Of a stretch of DNA of 64,000 bases, positions 37,297 to 43,424 are shown piece by piece. The notes under the pieces are model-generated. The model was not told where the DNA came from. It saw nothing but the letters and a program-made list of their open reading frames with translations, and did no database searches. The DNA is from Dehalococcoidia bacterium. Lineage in GTDB: Bacteria; Chloroflexota; Dehalococcoidia; UBA2979. The number at the start of each line of letters is the position of its first letter. The stretch's first letter is position 1. The DNA lies in contig JADLFF010000058.1 in NCBI GenBank assembly GCA_020845735.1, positions 40,368-104,367 on the forward strand, given 5' to 3'. Position numbers and translations under genes: made by a program.

Positions 37297-37579
37297 GAGG
37301 CACCCCTCTGTCTATCAGTGGAGTGCTGCGTGGGGTCTCGGGGCTTCCGGGGGAGCGGAGCGCACCTCGACCCGTCACGCAGCACGGCGTGATTGGGCCG
37401 AGAGTCTCGTCCGCCCCGGGGAGGGGCCGCGCTGCCGCCCTCGATGGAGGGAGCATGTCGACAGGCGCGAGGTGGACTACTCCCCCTCAGTGCCTCGAGT
37501 GAAGGGCACGCAGGGGTGCGTGTGCCAGTGCCGAACGACCTGACGCACGGGCACGACTCGTGCACTTGCGTACTGGTGA

Positions 37580-37599
37580 TGTAGAACTTGTGTGCTACA
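37580..37599. promoter_or_regulatory. candidate SOS (LexA) box TGTAGAAC-TTGT-GTGCTACA upstream of imuB
   Basis: Imperfect Cheo-type palindrome GAAC-N4-GTGC (7/8 arms), about 100 nt upstream of the imuB start, in the divergent intergenic region. Confidence 0.3.
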
Positions 37600-37700
37600 C
37601 TCCCTCGGCTTGCGGGGGTAGTGATATGTCTCCACATCCGCCGATGTCGGCGCGGACTCGTGGGTTGCGCCCTCCTGCACCCACTTCCGAGGGCCAGGTC

Positions 37701-38909
37701 ATGCAGGCCGGGCCGCCCGAGCGCTGGTACGCGTGCCTCGCCGTGCCCTCGCTGGCCCTCGCGCAGGTGCTGGCGGAGCAGCCGGAGCTCCGAGGCAGCC
37801 CGCTGGCGATCTCGGACGAGGCGGGCGTGCGGGTGGCCGACGCCACCTCGGAGGCCACGCACCGAGGCGTGCGCGCGGGGATGACGCTCCGCGAGGCCGT
37901 GGCGCTCTGTCCTCGGCTGGCCGTGCTCGAGCCGCGCCCCGCGCGCGTGCGGCGCATCGCCGACCAGCTCGTGGAGGGTGCCGCCTCGGTGAGCCCGCTG
38001 ATCGAGGAGGCCGAGCCGGGCGTCGTGTTCGCAGACCTGCGCGGACTGGCGTCGCTCTACCCGGAGCGCGGGGCGATCGAGGCGGCGCTGCTCGCCTCGG
38101 CGCCCGGGGTGCTCGAGCCGCGCGTGGGCGTGGCGGGTGAGCGCTTCACCTCGTGGGCGGCCGCGCGCAGCGCCGAGCCCGGCACGTGGGTGCGCGTGGA
38201 GCCCGGGCAGAGCGCGGCGTTCCTCGCGAGGCGGCCCGCGGACTGGCTGCCCCTCGACGCGGAGACGCTGCGCCGGCTGCGCCTCCTCGGCATCCACACC
38301 GTCGGCGAGTTCGCGGCGCTGCCGGGCCCTGCGGTGCAGGCGCAGTTCGGGCCCCCGGGACGGCGCGCGTGGCTCGCGGCGCGCGGGCGGGATCCCGAGC
38401 CGGTGCGCCCTCGGCCGCCCGCGGTGGAGCGCGTGGTGGAGCACGTGCAGTCGCTGCCGCCGCTGATCAGCCGCGAGGCGATCCTCCTCGGTGCGCGGCA
38501 ATTGCTGAGGCGGGCGCTGCGGCAGCCTCGAGCGGTGGGGCGCTTCGTGCGGCTCGTGCGGCTCTCGGCGGTGGGCGAGGAGGGCCAGGTGTGGGAGCGC
38601 CTCCACACGCTGCGCGAGCCGGCCAACGACGAGTACCAGCTCTGGATCATCGTGCAGACCCAGTTCGAGTACGCGGAGTTGCCGGGGCCGATCGCCGAGC
38701 TGGAGCTCGAGCTGGGCGGGCTGACCGCGGAGACGGGCCGCCAGCCGGGGCTGTTCGTGGACCACATGCGGCGACGTGAGCAACTCGAGGAGATGGTGCG
38801 GCACCTCCGAGTGCGGTTCGGGCACTCGCCGGTGGCGCAGGTGGTGGAGGTGGAGCCGTGGAGTCGACTGCCGGAGCGCCGCTACGCGCTCATGGACTAC
38901 GAGCCCTAG
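37701..38909 (+). CDS. imuB: ImuB, Y-family DNA polymerase-like protein of the mutagenesis cassette
   Basis: Y-family N-terminus (WYACLAVPSLALAQVL...GMTLREA...) without catalytic acidic residues. Located directly upstream of dnaE2. ATG at 37701 follows GAGGG. Confidence 0.75.
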   Translation: MQAGPPERWYACLAVPSLALAQVLAEQPELRGSPLAISDEAGVRVADATSEATHRGVRAGMTLREAVALCPRLAVLEPRPARVRRIADQLVEGAASVSPLIEEAEPGVVFADLRGLASLYPERGAIEAALLASAPGVLEPRVGVAGERFTSWAAARSAEPGTWVRVEPGQSAAFLARRPADWLPLDAETLRRLRLLGIHTVGEFAALPGPAVQAQFGPPGRRAWLAARGRDPEPVRPRPPAVERVVEHVQSLPPLISREAILLGARQLLRRALRQPRAVGRFVRLVRLSAVGEEGQVWERLHTLREPANDEYQLWIIVQTQFEYAELPGPIAELELELGGLTAETGRQPGLFVDHMRRREQLEEMVRHLRVRFGHSPVAQVVEVEPWSRLPERRYALMDYEP

Positions 38910-39154
38910 GGCAGCCTCGGCCGGTGGAGGTGGCCCTCGAGGGGGGGCGCCCGGCGCGGGTGACCGTGGAGCGCTCGCGAGTCGCGCGCGTGTTCGAGGT
39001 GGAGGGGGTGCAGGAGGTCTGGCGCGTGGCCGAGGCGTGGTGGCGGGAGGTGCCGGTGCGGCGCACGTACTACCAGGTGGTGGTGGACGGCGGCCGCGCG
39101 CTGACGCTGTTCCAGGACGAGGAGAGTGGTCGGTGGTACGAGCAGCGGTACTGA
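38858..39154 (+). CDS. small protein (98 aa) encoded in an alternative frame overlapping the imuB 3' end; function unknown
   Basis: GTG at 38858, 7 nt after GGAGG (GGTGGTGGAGGTGGAGCC). Overlaps the last 52 nt of imuB. Trp/Tyr-rich C-terminus (WRVAEAWWREV...RWYEQRY). Confidence 0.45.
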   Translation: MESTAGAPLRAHGLRALGQPRPVEVALEGGRPARVTVERSRVARVFEVEGVQEVWRVAEAWWREVPVRRTYYQVVVDGGRALTLFQDEESGRWYEQRY

Positions 39155-39770
39155 GTGTGGACGCGCCTTCGGCGCGGAGTCCCGCCCATCACCTCCATGC
39201 GAGGGGCTACGCCCCTCGCGCTCCCGCTCGGTCAGTCGCAGCGGCCGGCGTCAGGACAGAGCGCGACTTCAGCATCGGAGTGTGGACGCGCCTTCGGCGC
39301 GACTGCCCGCCCACCCACCCCTTTTTCAGTGGGGGCTCCGCCCCCACACCCCCAGGCGTGCCGACCTCGAACTTCGCGAGCGAACGACCTTCGAGGTCGA
39401 CGCGCCTTCGCGGCGCCCCGGCCGCCCGCCCCCCATCGGGCTCGGAGTGCGGGGTGTCCACGGGCTCTGTGCAGTTCGCTACGAGACCGGAGTTGTGGAC
39501 GCGCCTCCGGCGCGGTGTCCCACTCACCCACCCCGTTCATGCGAGGGGCTGTGCTCCTCGCGCTCCCGCTCGGTCAGTTTCAGCCGCCGGGGCAAGAATG
39601 GAGCGCAGACCTCAGCATCGGGGAAGTTGTGGACACACTCCGGCGCGACTGCGCCCACCCATCCCCTTGCTCCGTGGGGGCTTCGCCACCTCCCGCAGAA
39701 GTCGACGCACGAGTCCCATCGTGACGCGACCGACCCGGCTGGCATCACACGCTGGCCACGATGAGGGTGC
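39155..39770. repeat. hairpin-dense tandemly duplicated intergenic repeat array (A-B-A'-B', ~330 bp duplication) between the imuB region and dnaE2
   Basis: 22-mer GTGTGGACGCGCCTTCGGCGCG occurs at 39155 and 39279, with variants at 39486 and 39624. Unit A 39155..39280 is ~80% identical to 39486..39620. Multiple perfect hairpins (CGCGCC-TTC-GGCGCG, GAGGGGC-TAC-GCCCCTC, GTGGGGGC-TCC-GCCCCCAC, CGACCTCGAA...TTCGAGGTCG). Confidence 0.6.
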
Positions 39771-42700
39771 GTGATGGTTGAGGGCTGGCCGCGGGTGCGG
39801 TCGAACGATCACTTCTGCGGGCCGGGCACCGAGGGCGCGCACCACCGTCACGAGCACGGGGCGACCTCGAGGGGGCGGTGGGATGCGTTCGCGGCGGAGC
39901 GCGTCGAGCTCGAGCAGCTCGTGGCGAACGACACGCCGAGGTCGATGGCGCCTCGCGATCCGCTGGCGCCGATCGGCCTCGAGGTGCTGGACGGCACGCC
40001 GTACGTCGAGCTGCACCTGCACTCGAACTACTCCCTCCTCGAGGGTGCGTCACGCATCGGCGAGCTGGTGTGGACGGCGGCCGAGCAGGGCCATCGCGCG
40101 CTCGCGCTGACGGACCACAACGGCATGTACGGGGCGATGGAGTTCGCGCGCGCGGCAAAGGAGGCGAGCCTCCGCCCGATCACCGGCCTCGAGCTGACGG
40201 TCGCCGAGGGAAAGGCGGGAGCGGAGCGCTCGCACGTGACGCTGCTGGCCGAGAACAAGCGCGGCTACTCGAACCTGTGCCGGCTCTCGAGCATCGCGTT
40301 CGGGCTCGCCGAGACGGGGGCGAAGGAGAAGGAGGCGCGCCGCCTCGATCCGTGGGTACCCCTCGAGGAGCTGGCGCGCCACGCCGAGGGGTTGATCGTG
40401 CTGACAGGCTGCCGCGAGAGCCGCCTCGCGAGACTGGTGCAGGAGGGGCGGGGCGACCGCGCCGAGGCGTGGCTGCGCCGCCTCGTGGCATGGTTCGGCG
40501 TCGAGAGCGTCTTCGTCGAGCTGCAGGACAACCTCGTCTTCGGCGACCGGCCTCGGAACCACGCGCTGGTCGCGCTCGCCGAGGTGGTCAGCGTGGGCGT
40601 GGTGGGCACGGGCAACGTGCACTACCACGAGCCCGACCGGCACCGGCTGCAGGACGTGATGACGGCGATCCGCGTGCGGAAGTCGCTGGACGACTCGCAT
40701 CGGGAGCGGCGGGCGAACGCGGAGTTCTACCTGCGCTCACCCCTCGAGCAGGCGGCGCGCTTCGAGGAGTACCACCCGGAGGCCGCGCGCAACAGCGTCC
40801 GCATCGCGCGCCGGTGCGCGTTCGACCTGACCGAGGACCTGGGCTACCGGCTGCCCGAGCCGGCCTCGGCGAACGGGCGCACGGCAATCGAGGAGCTGGC
40901 GGTGGTGTGCCGTGCGCGCCTCGAGGGGCGGTACGCGGGGAGGCGGCGGCGCTACCTCGATGCCGCGCGCGAGCGGCTGGAACACGAGCTGGGGCTGATC
41001 GAGCGCCACCGCCTCGCGGGGTTCTTCCTCATCTACCACCAGATCTTCAACCTCGCGAGAGAAGTGGCGCGCGAGGTGCGCGGCGAGGGCAGCGCTCGGC
41101 AGTTCGCGAACCTGCCGCCGGGTCGCGGGCGCGGATCCTCGGTCGCCTCGATCGTCTGTTACCTGATCGGGCTGTCGCACATCGACCCGATCGCGAACCG
41201 GCTGACGATCGGGCGCTTCCTCAACGAGGAGATGCGCACCTTCCCGGACATCGACCTCGACTTTGCGCGCGACATCCGGCGGGTCCTCATCGAGCGGGTC
41301 TACGAGGTGTGGGGCAAGGAGCACGCGGCGCTCGTCGCGATCTTCCCCACGTACCGCCTCAAGAGCGCGCTGCGTGACATCGGCAAGGCGCTGGGGCTGC
41401 CGGCCGCGGAGATCGACCGGCTGGCGAAGCGCTCGAGTCCGCACGACGGCATCGAGCAGATCCCGGAGGAGCTGGCGCGCCATCCCGAGTACGCCGACCG
41501 CCTCGAGGCGCGGGCGTGGCGCGACCTCGCGGAGCTGTCGATCCAGCTCGCGGGGTTCCCGCGGCACATGTCGCAGCACGTGGGCGGGATGGTGATCTCC
41601 TCGGAGCCGCTCATCGACTACGTGCCGTGCCAGCCGGCGGCGTGGCCGAATCGCTACCTGTGCCACTGGGACAAGGACAGCATCGACGACGCGCGGATGG
41701 TGAAGATCGACTTCCTCGGACTGGGGATGCTCTCGGTCGTCGAGGAGACGATGGAGCTGATCGTCGAGGAGGGCCACACGCAGGTCGACCTCTCGACGAT
41801 CGCGTTCGACGACGCAGCGGTGTACGACGACATCTGCCGAGGCGACACGGTGGGGGTGTTCCAGATCGAGTCGCGGGCGCAGATCGCGATGCTGCCACGG
41901 ACGCAGCCGCGCAGCCTCGAGGACCTGACCGTGCAGGTCTCGATCGTGCGGCCGGGGCCGATTGTCGGTGGGGCGGTGAACCCGTACGTGCGGGAGCGCG
42001 AGAAGCAGCGCCGCCTCGGCGCCGCGTACCGGCCTCCCGAGGTGCATGCGTGTGTGAACGAGGTGCTCGACGAGACCCTCGGCGTGGTGCTGTTCCAGGA
42101 GCAGGTCGTCGAGGTAGCTCGGCGGATGGGAGGCTTCACGGCTGGGGAGGCGGAGCAGTTCCGCCGCGCGATGAGTCGCAAGCGCTCACTGGAGGTGATG
42201 CAGCGCTACGAGGAGCACTTCATGGCGGGCGCCCTCGAGCGGGGAGTGGAGCCCGCGATGGCGGAGCGGATGTTCAAGAACCTGCTGGGGTTCGCGGAGT
42301 TCGGCTTCCCGAAGAGCCACGGGGCGGCGTTCGGTCTGCTCGCGTACCAGACGACGTGGCTCAAGCGGTACTACCCGGCGCCGTTCTTCTGCGCGCTGTT
42401 CAACAACCAGCCGATGGGCTTCTACCCGCCGCACGTGCTGACGAACGACGCGAAACGCCACGACCTGGAGGTGCGCCGGCCCGACCTCAACCTGAGCGAC
42501 GCGCGCTGCACGGTGGAGCCCTCGACGCTGGCGCGCGGCGCGATCCGGGTGGGGCTGGGCTACGTGCGCAGCGTGGGCGAGGTGGCCGGCGCGCACATCG
42601 AGGCGGAGCGCCGTCGCGAGGGGCCGTACACGTCGCTGTTCAACCTCGTGCAGCGCACGGGGATCAGCCGGCAGGCGGTGGAAGCCCTCGTGCGGGTGGG

Positions 42701-43277
42701 GGCGTGCGACGACTTCGGGCTCAATCGCCGCGAGCTGCTCTGGCAGCTGGGGCTGTTCTGGGGCGGGATGCAGCAGGCGGCGCTGAGCGTGCCTCGAGAG
42801 CGGCAGTTGCGCCTCCCACTGACGACGGAGCAGGACGAGGTGTCACTCGTCGACTTCGACGCCTACCAGCGGATGACGGCGGACTACGAGCTGCTGTCGC
42901 TCTCGCCGGACAGCCACCCGATGCAGTTCATGCGGGGCGCCCTCGGGGAGGGCGTGGCCTCGAGTCGGCACCTGCGCGCGATCCCCGGCGGGAGCCAGGT
43001 GGACGTCGCGGGCCTGGTGGTGTGCCGCCAGCGGCCGATGACGGCGAAGGGGATCATCTTCCTGCTGCTGGAGGACGAGTTCGGGATGATCAACGTGCTG
43101 GTGAGCAAGGAGCTCTCCGAGCGCTTCCGCGACCACATCCGGACGGCGCCGTTCGTGCGGGTGCGCGGGGTCCTCGAGGAGCGGATGGGGGAGCAGCGGA
43201 CGCTGGTGGCCTCGCAGCTCTGGGAACTCGTCCCCTCCCAGATGTTCCGCACGCCCCACGGCAAGTCGTGGGGCTAG
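39771..43277 (+). CDS. dnaE2: error-prone DNA polymerase DnaE2 (ImuC)
   Basis: PHP domain start YVELHLHSNYSLLEGAS, pol III alpha core GFFLIYHQI and FPDIDLDF, and a C-terminal OB-fold region. About 70-aa N-terminal leader as in actinobacterial DnaE2. Confidence 0.9.
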   Translation: MMVEGWPRVRSNDHFCGPGTEGAHHRHEHGATSRGRWDAFAAERVELEQLVANDTPRSMAPRDPLAPIGLEVLDGTPYVELHLHSNYSLLEGASRIGELVWTAAEQGHRALALTDHNGMYGAMEFARAAKEASLRPITGLELTVAEGKAGAERSHVTLLAENKRGYSNLCRLSSIAFGLAETGAKEKEARRLDPWVPLEELARHAEGLIVLTGCRESRLARLVQEGRGDRAEAWLRRLVAWFGVESVFVELQDNLVFGDRPRNHALVALAEVVSVGVVGTGNVHYHEPDRHRLQDVMTAIRVRKSLDDSHRERRANAEFYLRSPLEQAARFEEYHPEAARNSVRIARRCAFDLTEDLGYRLPEPASANGRTAIEELAVVCRARLEGRYAGRRRRYLDAARERLEHELGLIERHRLAGFFLIYHQIFNLAREVAREVRGEGSARQFANLPPGRGRGSSVASIVCYLIGLSHIDPIANRLTIGRFLNEEMRTFPDIDLDFARDIRRVLIERVYEVWGKEHAALVAIFPTYRLKSALRDIGKALGLPAAEIDRLAKRSSPHDGIEQIPEELARHPEYADRLEARAWRDLAELSIQLAGFPRHMSQHVGGMVISSEPLIDYVPCQPAAWPNRYLCHWDKDSIDDARMVKIDFLGLGMLSVVEETMELIVEEGHTQVDLSTIAFDDAAVYDDICRGDTVGVFQIESRAQIAMLPRTQPRSLEDLTVQVSIVRPGPIVGGAVNPYVREREKQRRLGAAYRPPEVHACVNEVLDETLGVVLFQEQVVEVARRMGGFTAGEAEQFRRAMSRKRSLEVMQRYEEHFMAGALERGVEPAMAERMFKNLLGFAEFGFPKSHGAAFGLLAYQTTWLKRYYPAPFFCALFNNQPMGFYPPHVLTNDAKRHDLEVRRPDLNLSDARCTVEPSTLARGAIRVGLGYVRSVGEVAGAHIEAERRREGPYTSLFNLVQRTGISRQAVEALVRVGACDDFGLNRRELLWQLGLFWGGMQQAALSVPRERQLRLPLTTEQDEVSLVDFDAYQRMTADYELLSLSPDSHPMQFMRGALGEGVASSRHLRAIPGGSQVDVAGLVVCRQRPMTAKGIIFLLLEDEFGMINVLVSKELSERFRDHIRTAPFVRVRGVLEERMGEQRTLVASQLWELVPSQMFRTPHGKSWG

Positions 43278-43349: not shown

Positions 43350-43424
43350 GGGCCCGTAGCTCAGCGGTAGAGCAGAGGACTTTTAATCCTTCGGTCCAGG
43401 GTTCGAATCCCTGCGGGCCTACCA
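43350..43424 (+). tRNA. tRNA-Lys (anticodon UUU), CCA encoded
   Basis: Cloverleaf: acceptor GGGCCCG/CGGGCCT, D-arm GCTC-AGCGGTA-GAGC, anticodon arm GAGGA-CTTTTAA-TCCTT, T-arm CAGGG-TTCGAAT-CCCTG, then A+CCA. Confidence 0.85.

Follow-up and report, generated by a model that had tools for sequence, protein, structure and literature searches.

Small dispersed bacterial repeats include MITEs as well as the Correia, ERIC, BOX, and RUP repeats, and STRR-like short tandemly repeated heptamers are known from cyanobacteria. Rut sites and Rho-dependent terminators are characterized by a stop codon followed by untranslated RNA rich in C and poor in G, together with pausing hairpins. Among the REPs, a GTGG variant of the GTAG type has been reported, in one family only (PMC3733652). 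For SOS mutagenesis genes, "contiguous or split" cassettes are on record (PMC3919608), and an operon type has been described in which a PolY gene, a small protein representing a standalone ImuB-C, and dnaE2 follow one another (PMC6511836).

Here, we analyzed a 64-kb window (the whole stretch of DNA under study) in which a similar set of genes is parted by a 616-nt spacer (39155..39770), located between an upstream 98-amino-acid (98-aa) open reading frame (ORF) and dnaE2. We consider it probable that this spacer originated by strain-specific tandem amplification of a REP-like hairpin module just 3' of the ImuB-C-like gene. The cassette contains the following features:

37580..37599, plus strand: TGTAGAAC-TTGT-GTGCTACA, a candidate operator for LexA (Cheo type) in front of the Y-family polymerase gene
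37560..38909, plus strand: Y-family polymerase homologue ("imuB," polY; Pfam IMS, E = 6.9e-17)
38858..39154, plus strand: conserved ORF of 98 aa that overlaps polY by 52 nt and lies in its -1 frame
39774..43277, plus strand: dnaE2, error-prone C-family DNA polymerase (NCBIfam "error-prone DNA polymerase," 971 bits; cut-off, 939)

The polY product matched DinB-type NCBIfam models weakly, below the cut-off. Its frame maintained a GC content at third codon positions (GC3) of 0.9 to 1.0 up to 38909, and the real start may be ATG 37626. A TAGAAC-N4-GT[GT]CTA box was found at the same place upstream of polY/imuB in the window and in 17 related loci; none preceded dnaE2, and the candidate LexA box upstream of polY has no counterpart elsewhere in the cassette. 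By itself, the loose GAAC-N4-GTTC motif was not enriched in the window, and no SOS box was found inside the spacer. The dnaE2 product exhibited the Pfam domains PHP, DNA_pol3_alpha, finger, HHH_6, and OB; the gene starts at ATG 39774 (alternatively GTG 39771) and is preceded by its own Shine-Dalgarno sequence (SD), GAGGG, at 39763-39767.

A previous reading of the same DNA, made from the sequence only, had placed the spacer between the imuB region and dnaE2. The ORF ending at 39154 is not imuB, however, but a separate, conserved ORF in another frame, with a GC3 of 0.95 to 1.0 in its own frame. The small ORF was in the -1 frame in 59 of 64 loci, and its start codon was conserved at position -51 or -3 from the polY stop. 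Across the clade, the small ORF overlapped polY by 52 nt or 4 nt, and relatives carried stand-alone homologues of 97 to 126 aa. The possibility that it is a frameshifted ImuB C terminus can be dismissed, since its start is conserved and a fusion to polY was never seen. The AlphaFold2 model of the 98-aa product was all-beta, with six strands and no helix (mean pLDDT, 79.8). Searches for a family in Pfam and NCBIfam, for a significant match by fold or sequence in the PDB, and by tblastn against plasmids were all negative. The ORF sits between the Y-family homologue and dnaE2 in an operon without imuA, and it has a WW...R.YY...LF.D...W motif, which may resemble ImuB C termini. It is probably a standalone ImuB-C, and the local annotation is corrected to an ImuA-less PolY/putative standalone ImuB-C/DnaE2 cassette with a conserved -1-frame overlap.

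The TGA of the upstream ORF ends at 39154, and the array begins at the very next base. As already described from the sequence as a noncoding, hairpin-dense stretch of ~600 bp, the spacer lacked any codon-position GC periodicity, unlike both flanking genes (GC3, 0.9 to 1.0). The proposed tandem duplication was also evident: units follow each other in the order A-B-A'-B' with a period of ~340 nt (start-to-start distance of long repeats, 342 to 346 nt), and a unique 3' tail comes after B'. The parts of the spacer are as follows:

39155..39279, plus strand: unit A, with head hairpin (39162-39176), C-rich tract, hairpin 2 (39199-39219), and a tail ending in CAGCATCGGA
39280..39492, plus strand: unit B, with head hairpin (39287-39301), four C-runs (39306-39321), and hairpin 2 (39329-39347)
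39362-39371 and 39390-39399, plus strand: 10-bp arms of the long hairpin of unit B
39397-39416, plus strand: partial fifth head within unit B
39493..39626, plus strand: unit A', a diverged copy of A, with an intact head (39500-39514; loop TCC)
39627..~39700, plus strand: unit B', a shortened, decayed copy of B, with head stem and hairpin 2 broken and the long hairpin absent
39701..39770, plus strand: nonrepeated 3' tail of the spacer, containing the dnaE2 Shine-Dalgarno sequence

Each unit opens with a ~75-nt module consisting of a GTGGAC-tagged CGCGCC/GGCGCG hairpin, a C-rich tract, and a second GC hairpin. The head comprises a 6-bp stem and a 3-nt loop in A, B, and A', and hairpin 2 has 8 to 9 bp, with one mismatch in A' (39541-39561). 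The head tag is GTGTGGA (GTGG...), which differs from GTAG and CGTC. All stem-loops that had been predicted were recovered, i.e., CGCGCC-TTC-GGCGCG as the head of A and B, GCGAGGGGC-TAC-GCCCCTCGC and GTGGGGGC-TCC-GCCCCCAC as hairpin 2 of A and B, respectively, and the hairpin with 10-bp arms. The claim that one 22-mer opens every sub-unit was slightly overstated: A and B contain this sequence unchanged, A' differs from it at 2 positions, and B' has a degenerate form (deletion, broken stem). With up to 3 mismatches, the 22-mer matched 3 times in the window, compared to 0.03 matches expected from shuffles. The heads of A and B were 100% identical over 24 nt, with the remainder of the modules diverged, and the corresponding exact repeat (39153-39176 and 39278-39301) takes in the last two bases of the stop codon. 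The identity of the two heads could reflect selection on the head, beyond recent gene conversion. All four heads and the partial fifth are in direct orientation, with a head spacing of 125, 213, and 134 nt. This spacing, together with "spacers" that are themselves duplicated (A/A' and B/B'), excluded a CRISPR array. Units A and A' shared 103 identical positions across 125 to 134 nt, with indels of 4 nt and 1 nt; similarity between B and B' was limited to the first ~70 nt. Tandem Repeats Finder did not report the array, as its copies have diverged too far and contain indels.

Perfect hairpins with stems of at least 6 bp reached their window maximum in the 500-nt bin starting at 39000 (8 versus a mean of ~1.5). 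The plus strand of the spacer folded more stably than its shuffles (z = -5.6), and the minus strand was not clearly better than shuffles (z = -1.8). For the individual modules, z was -0.5 in B' and -2.3 to -3.1 in the others. Across module types, 88% of cells paired versus 77% in shuffles, with double changes in 7 of 15 pairs; this comparison used 8 related sequences, which had also served to derive the structure. Uncompensated changes were present in the head of B' and in hairpin 2 of both A' and B'. Neither an intrinsic terminator (GC hairpin plus U tract; 38700-40000, either strand) nor a promoter-like signal for the array was found. The sense strand of the spacer contained 241 C versus 196 G, equivalent to a C/G ratio of 1.23 overall and up to 2.3 in 78-nt windows. 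For comparison, the flanking genes had ratios of 0.48 to 0.85, only ~1% of plus-strand windows exceeded 1.6, and the GC skew was negative only at the spacer.

Exact, mismatch, BLAST, and covariance-model searches revealed no further module copies in the 64-kb window, and no convincing match was obtained in 911 kb of related loci, covariance model included. Within the window, the covariance model recovered the four modules only (51 bits for B' and 82 to 88 bits for the other three). Its matches in loci L058, L059, L034, and L042 were discarded as lying within a conserved coding region, and those in L003 were other GC hairpins of that locus's own spacer. An exact scan for TGTGGACGCGCCTYCGGCGCG in 185,579 species representatives yielded 0 matches, and a distant BLAST search of the spacer against plasmids yielded none. 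Against Rfam 15, the spacer gave only two chance-level matches (E, 0.2 to 0.3); in the whole window, a tRNA-Lys was the sole match above the Rfam gathering score. An exact 20-mer scan of metagenomes returned 64 loci, where a few dozen chance matches are expected in GC-rich metagenome DNA from base composition. Many of these matches were in coding sequence or unrelated elements, no contig from the L133 sample was among them, and L089 alone shared more than the 20-mer. Window positions 39282-39353 (B-type module, 72 nt) were 87.5% identical to L089 1108-1178, and the L089 module is also C-rich. At this second locus, an MFS transporter gene is followed by a B-type module and a diverged second module, in the sense direction. 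The locus is represented by contigs of three samples, two of which (L089/L140 and L139) yielded the module sequences; in L139, the modules lie between convergent genes, on the sense strand of the MFS gene. This one extra locus (L139) suggests that the same family is dispersed, and the module appears to be of low copy number, with one cluster in the 64 kb searched.

The spacer sequence occurred in 0 of 68 related genome loci. The statement of the sequence-only reading that the cassette genes are normally adjacent applies to most relatives: of 43 syntenic loci, the majority have the small-ORF stop and the dnaE2 start overlapping or 0 to 10 nt apart. Within the clade, however, this junction varies, and ~14 related loci have VapBC-like pairs, heptamer arrays, or different hairpin-rich spacers at it. 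VapBC-like pairs were called by Pfam in L136 to L138, and PIN plus antitoxin ORFs were read from motifs alone in L016 (two copies), L017, L019, L054, L067, and L068. Heptamer arrays were present at this junction in L018, L053, and L056, and also elsewhere in the same contigs; L003 and L006 had unrelated hairpin-rich spacers. A hairpin immediately after the stop codon, of differing sequence, was found in L003, L006, and L135, and its recurrence hints at a functional 3'-end hairpin. From these comparisons, the junction looks permissive, i.e., it would tolerate insertions.

A homology search with the DnaE2 N terminus, aimed at close strains and the 3' flank of their arrays, returned none above 75% identity. 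In the closest species representative (L004; DnaE2 91% identical), the spacer is 93 nt long, unrelated, and unalignable. The sister strain L134 (88% identical) has a spacer of ~105 nt, which holds a single A-type module with a weak head, a C-rich tract, and a hairpin formed by GCGAGGGG and CCCCTCGC; the ribosome-binding site of dnaE2 comes next. L134 aligns to window positions 38812-39225 and 39754-40044, so that unit A is orthologous to its single module and 39754-39770 are common to both, and ~530 nt (39226-39753) are missing from L134. The near-identical strain L133, from JGI sample 3300009873, exhibited 7 differences in 1843 positions (99.6% identity), all of them at 39169-39219 inside unit A; 3 of the 7 match the A' state, and some could be due to A/A' assembly mixing, as L133 is a short-read contig ending inside the repeat. 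The contigs L135 and L089 likewise end within or beside the repeat.

Taken together, we infer that a single A-type module with a ~105-nt spacer, as still seen in L134, would represent the ancestral state. The lineage of the window would then have gained a second module type of the same family (B), and the A+B block would have been duplicated in tandem, for which slippage or unequal recombination at the identical 24-nt heads is the simplest route; the distal copy A'B' is now decaying. Since bases of the stop codon are included in the 24-nt repeat, local copying is a better fit than an inserted element whose ends are fixed. Most likely, the array is ordinary fast-turnover repeat DNA in the high-GC genome of an uncultured, Dehalococcoidia-like member of the Chloroflexota and would not have a selected locus-specific role. 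As a passive consequence, dnaE2 would lose translational coupling and depend on its own SD. Because the sole SOS box is located upstream of polY, SOS-driven transcription has to pass through the untranslated 616 nt, rich in C and dense in hairpins, before reaching dnaE2, and this may lower or destabilize dnaE2 expression.

This last point leads to an alternative that we regard as possible but unlikely, namely, that the array is a selected cis-acting attenuator of the SOS transcription reaching dnaE2, in the form of either a rut site with pause hairpins or U-less terminators. The ribosome leaves at the stop codon (39152-39154), and the untranslated C-rich, G-poor RNA would load Rho; in its composition, the spacer does represent an untranslated region with C exceeding G over at least ~80 nt downstream of a stop codon, as expected for a rut site. 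The position of the only LexA-like box, the retention of an SD by dnaE2, a sense-strand C excess that is unusual for this genome and fits a functional rut-like site, and the independent lineages that also part dnaE2 from the upstream genes with other inserts are all in line with such a function. However, C richness belongs to the repeat module itself, as it is also found in L089, and does not require selection at this locus. Moreover, a canonical intrinsic terminator is absent, the distal copy is decaying, and, with most relatives lacking the spacer and only 105 nt in L134, any role would be strain specific. We see only a slight chance that the modules constitute a fast-evolving attenuator (Rho type or structure based) that sets the level of DnaE2 versus PolY plus ImuB-C after SOS induction. 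If so, the repeated independent colonization of the junction by the hairpin array, VapBC-like pairs (at least 9 loci), and heptamer arrays (3 loci) would indicate selection for uncoupling of the mutagenic polymerase from the partners under SOS control, and the occurrence of 7 of 7 strain differences inside the array would reflect adaptive tuning or structure-induced local hypermutation beside the mutasome genes. A small structured RNA gene (or several), or a signal-sensing structured leader for dnaE2, is very unlikely. The plus strand is indeed more stable than shuffles, and two helices per module display double changes between module types, but the covariation comes from the same 8 sequences that gave the structure, no Rfam family was found even at E up to 1, searches for promoter-like or terminator-like signals were negative, and the array is unconserved in relatives, with decaying copies.

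Insertion of a classical mobile repeat, i.e., a RAYT-mobilized REP/REPIN cluster or a MITE with multiple copies elsewhere in the genome, also appears quite unlikely to us. The GTGGA(C) tail with a 6-bp GC stem resembles GTAG-type REPs, the position 3' of a gene is REP typical (PMC3733652), contigs of L133, L135, and L089 end in or beside the repeat, and the same 20-mer is present in dense GTG[GAC]AC-hairpin arrays at several intergenic sites of soil contigs (L103, L070, L110, and L126). In contrast, no second copy was detected in 64 kb or in 911 kb of relatives, and the 20-mer matches include none from the L133 sample, many in coding sequence, and a few dozen expected by chance. In addition, the heads are all direct, without inverted pairs; the units are not bounded by terminal inverted repeats or target duplications, the sole inverted repeat near the unit ends being the 6-nt GTGGAC/GTCCAC; and, instead of an empty site, L134 contains one orthologous module. 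Finally, a degraded or unrecognized protein-coding gene is extremely improbable. Long plus-strand frames do span the spacer (39155..39724, 189 aa; 38776..39774, 332 aa), but long chance ORFs are expected at 71% GC, Pfam matches were nil, the codon-position GC signal is absent where true genes have a GC3 above 0.9, and indels of 1, 2, and 4 nt between the duplicated units break any frame. Among the three options offered by the sequence-only reading, a REP/MITE-like element comes closest, as tagged GC palindromes lie 3' of a gene and are mostly absent from relatives, and other metagenomes contain one of the module types at an unrelated locus; a generic REP with hundreds of copies does not agree with the lack of other copies in the 64-kb window and in 911 kb of related loci. 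A structured noncoding or conserved cis-regulatory RNA finds no support, given the missing Rfam match, the absence from relatives, and the loss of distal stems without compensation. Uncoupling of dnaE2 is real as a physical separation from the upstream ORF (616 nt, own SD).

The repeat module is new to Rfam, and the pair of strains with one and four modules provides a clean example of array growth and decay. The ImuB-C/dnaE2 junction of this clade is a recurrent landing or expansion site, and translational coupling of dnaE2 should not be assumed there by those who model or annotate SOS operons.

In comparison with known systems, the cassette shares with Kyrpidia tusciae-type operons (PMC6511836) the order of Y-family homologue, ~100-aa all-beta protein, and dnaE2, a LexA-type box upstream, and the lack of an adjacent imuA. 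It differs in that the overlap of the small gene with polY is a -1-frame overlap throughout the clade, that a repeat array parts this gene from dnaE2 in the present strain, and that the homology to ImuB-C is putative. Rho-dependent terminators and the spacer are alike in C-rich untranslated RNA after a stop codon with possible pause hairpins, but the composition of the spacer is a property of the repeat family. The STRR-like heptamers of L018, L053, and L056 occupy the same junction and are lineage specific as well, yet bear no relation to the array in sequence or architecture (tandem units of 7 nt versus hairpin modules of 75 nt). Features in common with MITE-type repeats are the unit size of 100 to 200 nt, internal hairpins, the noncoding nature, presence/absence polymorphism between close strains, and possible cotranscription with flanking genes; in contrast to MITEs, the array lacks terminal inverted repeats and a target-site duplication and would have grown by tandem duplication in place. 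With REP, BIME, and REPIN sequences (PMC3733652, PMC3116915), it shares short palindromes that are rich in GC and carry an unpaired tag at the 5' end (here GTGGA[C]), an extragenic site downstream of a coding region, clustering of several units per intergenic space, stem upkeep through paired changes, and fast turnover between strains. Unlike these, its units are direct rather than inverted doublets, its tag is neither GTAG nor CGTC, its copy number is apparently low (one cluster in 64 kb, none in relatives), and its module is a ~75-nt composite of two different hairpins and a C-rich tract within units of 125 to 213 nt.

The window derives from a genome of ∼71% GC, and the spacer lies there in the following gene order (window coordinates).

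37560..38909, plus strand: Y-family polymerase homologue (polY), Pfam IMS
38858..39154, plus strand, −1 frame: 98-aa small ORF with a GC3 coding signal
39155..39770, plus strand: spacer of 616 nt between the small ORF and dnaE2
39774..43277, plus strand: dnaE2, NCBIfam "error-prone DNA polymerase," score above cut-off
43350..43424, plus strand: tRNA-Lys(UUU), directly 3′ of dnaE2

Codon-position GC revealed that the small ORF and dnaE2 are coding (GC3 of 0.9 to 1.0, each in its own frame), while the same analysis gave no such signal in the spacer. Long chance ORFs across the spacer were rejected, since their frames are disrupted wherever the duplicated units differ by indels (1, 2, and 4 nt). 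The nearest proteins to the window DnaE2 come from uncultured Chloroflexota/Dehalococcoidia MAGs, with 91% identity to "Chloroflexi sp. RBC038" (locus L004) and 81% to three others. Ahead of its PHP domain, DnaE2 is extended N-terminally by ∼75 aa (39774..39990, the first ∼75 codons), and alignments run from residue 2 in the closest relatives only; because most others align from residue 26 to 37 on, the dnaE2 start and extension are variable in the clade. tRNA-Lys(UUU) likewise directly follows dnaE2 in L004 (9598-9672), and in L001 and L005 the cassette adjoins tRNA-Arg and tRNA-Pro instead; the cassette may be located in tRNA-linked variable regions.

The sequence-only reading had placed the imuB region 5′ of the spacer. 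This assignment had to be dropped: the ORF ending at 39154 is a gene in its own right and does not form the 3′ part of imuB. Its homologues in relatives are called as stand-alone proteins of ∼100 aa, in the −1 frame relative to polY at 59 of 64 loci, and a fusion with polY was never seen across the 64. The start codon is conserved, lying either 51 nt before the polY end (a 52-nt overlap, as in the window) or in a 4-nt ATGA/GTGA overlap; the long conserved overlap is seemingly undescribed in the literature consulted. The predicted model is all-beta (pLDDT 80) with the first 14 residues disordered, and had no PDB match. An ImuA-less operon of "inactive PolY, standalone ImuB-C, DnaE2" has been described (PMC6511836); the window cassette fits this type, with the small ORF probably representing the standalone ImuB-C. 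Searches of Pfam, NCBIfam, and plasmids (tblastn) did not reveal direct homology to ImuB-C.

The spacer is composed of four units and a unique tail.

39155-39279, plus strand: unit A
39280-39492, plus strand: unit B
39493-39626, plus strand: unit A′
39627 to ∼39700, plus strand: unit B′
3′ of unit B′, plus strand: unique tail, holding the dnaE2 Shine-Dalgarno sequence GAGGG (39763-39767)

Every unit starts with a ∼75-nt module, in which an unpaired GTGTGGA tag is followed by a CGCGCC-TTC-GGCGCG hairpin, a C-rich tract, and a second GC hairpin of A type (GCGAGGGGC/GCCCCTCGC) or B type (GTGGGGGC/GCCCCCAC). In unit B there is also a partial fifth head (39397-39416), together with a long hairpin whose 10-bp arms (39362-39371 and 39390-39399) match perfectly. 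The 22-mer head, thought to open every sub-unit, is exact in A and B only, with two mismatches in A′ and a broken copy in B′. The exact repeat is 24 nt long (39153-39176 and 39278-39301) and reaches into the stop codon, taking in its final two bases. Modules 1 to 3 folded as drawn (z = −2.3 to −3.1 versus shuffles), whereas the fold drawn for module 4 was not recovered (z = −0.5). GC hairpins with stems of ≥7 bp are frequent in this genome (67 in 64 kb); the exceptional features are the clustering and repetition of hairpins, not any single hairpin. Both helices are retained across the eight available modules (88% of cells pair versus 77% in shuffles), with changes on both sides in 7 of 15 base pairs; since the modules share ancestry and also served to derive the structure, this conservation is supportive, not decisive. 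The A-B-A′-B′ architecture, GC3, and folding confirm the earlier description of a noncoding, duplicated, hairpin-dense spacer upstream of dnaE2.

None of 68 related loci from species-representative genomes contained the spacer sequence. Of the 43 loci sharing this gene order, most have the small ORF stop and dnaE2 start overlapping or within ∼10 nt of each other, bearing out the expectation that these cassette genes are usually adjacent or overlapping; the 93-nt spacer of L004 could not be aligned with that of the window. Three closer contigs were found via small ORF homologues. L133 (JGI sample 3300009873) covers window 37381-39223 at 99.6% identity, its end falling within unit A. The seven mismatches are all confined to 51 nt of unit A (39169-39219; L133 1789-1839), with none in the other 1,774 nt, and three of the seven show the A′ state; these differences are either genuine (the site being locally hypervariable, or converted from A′) or an artifact of assembly in which repeat copies were mixed. 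In L134 (88% identical), the spacer measures just 105 nt and matches one A-type module (window 39155-39225), with hairpin 2 kept despite a 1-nt deletion, before the alignment resumes at window 39754, the Shine-Dalgarno region. L135 (89.5% identical) carries a different hairpin and breaks off 23 nt past the stop codon. The single-module spacer of L134 therefore suggests that the ancestral spacer held one module, and ∼530 nt (39226-39753) are specific to the lineage of the window's strain.

Other inserts were observed at the same small ORF-dnaE2 junction. At least 9 related loci carry, exactly at this position, a minus-strand pair of a PIN-domain (VapC-like) ORF and an AbrB/MazE-type antitoxin ORF, and three other lineages carry tandem heptamer arrays (GAGTTCA type, CCAAGAG type).

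L136 1928-2663, L137 3674-4409, L138 447-1182, minus strand: toxin-antitoxin pair, Pfam calls
L016 1993-3499 (two copies) and gaps of L017, L019, L054, L067, L068, minus strand: toxin-antitoxin pair, ORF motifs alone
L018 5652-6030, L053 5760-5950, L056 5683-5710: junction heptamer arrays

The ∼300-nt junction spacers of L003 and L006 are hairpin-rich and non-repetitive. Cassettes that are "contiguous or split" were already known (PMC3919608), and the junction is permissive to inserts. Arrays of similar heptamers are also found at other positions in L018 (2195-2215, minus strand) and L056 (2057-2091), and flank a GTGGACGCGCCTTCGGCGCG hairpin in unrelated contigs (L085, L087, L092, L094, L100, L104, L109).

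Within the window, no further module copies were detected by exact or mismatch search, short-word BLAST, or a module covariance model without filters, and over 911 kb of related loci this model gave no convincing match; matches in L058, L059, L034, and L042 were discarded, as they are located in a conserved coding region. Scanning JGI metagenome contigs with the 20-mer head yielded 64 loci, most sharing the 20-mer alone; from base composition, we estimate a few dozen chance occurrences in GC-rich DNA. One of the 64, L089, is truly related, with a B-type module (87.5% identity over 72 nt) and then a second, diverged module. On a longer contig (L139), the modules lie in a convergent intergenic region, preceded by a canonical terminator, 3′ of an MFS transporter gene and in its sense orientation; the genes beyond them are not related to the mutagenesis cassette. 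This locus was present on contigs from three samples, and modules were read in two (L089/L140 and L139). Overall, the module represents a low-copy, REP-like family; it is not an invention of this locus alone, nor a high-copy REP.

On the minus strand, the B-type C-tract (39306..39321) reads GGGGTGGGTGGGCGGG, which matches the canonical G-quadruplex pattern, with loops of 1 nt; the 64-kb window contains only 8 canonical motifs of this kind, and this one is taken as a lead only. At the same place the L089 module reads CCCGCCCGCCCGCCC (module strand), and therefore retains four C/G runs with changed loop bases.

Some 20 soil metagenome contigs (L074, L076, L078, L079, L082, L083, L086, L093, L095, L099, L102, L107, L108, L113, L114, L116, L121, L122, L129, L132) share a conserved noncoding element of >400 nt containing the same 20-mer hairpin. 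It extends from ∼250 nt 5′ to 350 nt 3′ of the 20-mer, includes iteron-like direct repeats of 11 to 12 nt (CCCTACGTCATT/CCCCTGGCATT) and a 40-nt perfect hairpin (GGGGGGCCAGTCGGCCGC-AAAAACC-GCGGCCGACTGGCCCCCC), and matches nothing in Rfam; it may represent an origin or mobile-element end. Dense arrays of ∼26-nt units (GTG[GAC]AC plus a GC stem with TTCG loop), often forward then inverted, occupy several intergenic sites per contig.

L103 6250-6500 (also ∼10230, ∼14150), L110 1255-1480 (adjoining a tRNA gene), L126 11030-11110: ∼26-nt-unit arrays
L123 7040-7330, L070 1980-2110 and 5600-5750: ∼26-nt-unit arrays

In several contigs a conserved GGCTTGCTCGGG... sequence comes next. These arrays are a REP/BIME-like family of soil bacteria.

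We favor, with moderate confidence, local tandem amplification followed by distal-copy decay as the origin of the spacer: a REP-like module 3′ of the small ORF would have been amplified in tandem, in place, the insertion-tolerant junction would have accommodated growth of the array, and the distal copy would have decayed afterwards. A candidate LexA operator (Cheo-type palindrome TGTAGAAC-TTGT-GTGCTACA, 37580-37599, plus strand) lies just 5′ of polY, and the pattern TAGAAC-N4-GT[GT]CTA is kept at the same position in 17 relatives (listed carriers: L001, L002, L004, L005, L010, L011, L013, L038, L040, L043, L047, L052, L068, L133, L136, L137). No Cheo-type box was found ahead of dnaE2 in the window or relatives, even where inserts separate dnaE2. 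With the sole box 5′ of polY, SOS-driven dnaE2 expression would therefore cross the array, barring an undetected spacer promoter; a sigma-70 scan of the spacer, uninformative for this phylum, gave none. The spacer sense strand is C-rich (241 C versus 196 G; C/G in 78-nt windows of up to 2.3 versus 0.48 to 0.85 in flanking genes), which is compatible with a candidate Rho loading site, as a lead only, and this composition is a property of the repeat family wherever located. Selection of the array as an attenuator of dnaE2, acting through Rho or through its hairpins, seems unlikely.

Still less likely is a classical high-copy REP/REPIN or MITE insertion, against which the low copy number and the absence of inverted pairing speak; from the original REP/MITE-like proposal, a low-copy REP-like family survives, by virtue of the related L089/L139 modules. 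The whole spacer folds better than shuffles on the plus strand (z = −5.6), with no clear gain on the minus strand (z = −1.8). We consider it improbable that the array is a small-RNA gene or a structured leader. A coding remnant, at odds with the absent codon-position signal and the indels between units, can hardly be entertained.

For comparison with known systems, we used the defining features of REPs (PMC3733652, PMC3116915). The likeness is functional and architectural. The array departs from REPs in copy number and inverted pairing; its tag is an unpaired GTGTGGA, where REPs have GTAG or CGTC, and a GTGG variant has been described in one REP family (PMC3733652). The earlier interpretation is supported in part, and the array belongs to a known class, the small structured intergenic repeats.
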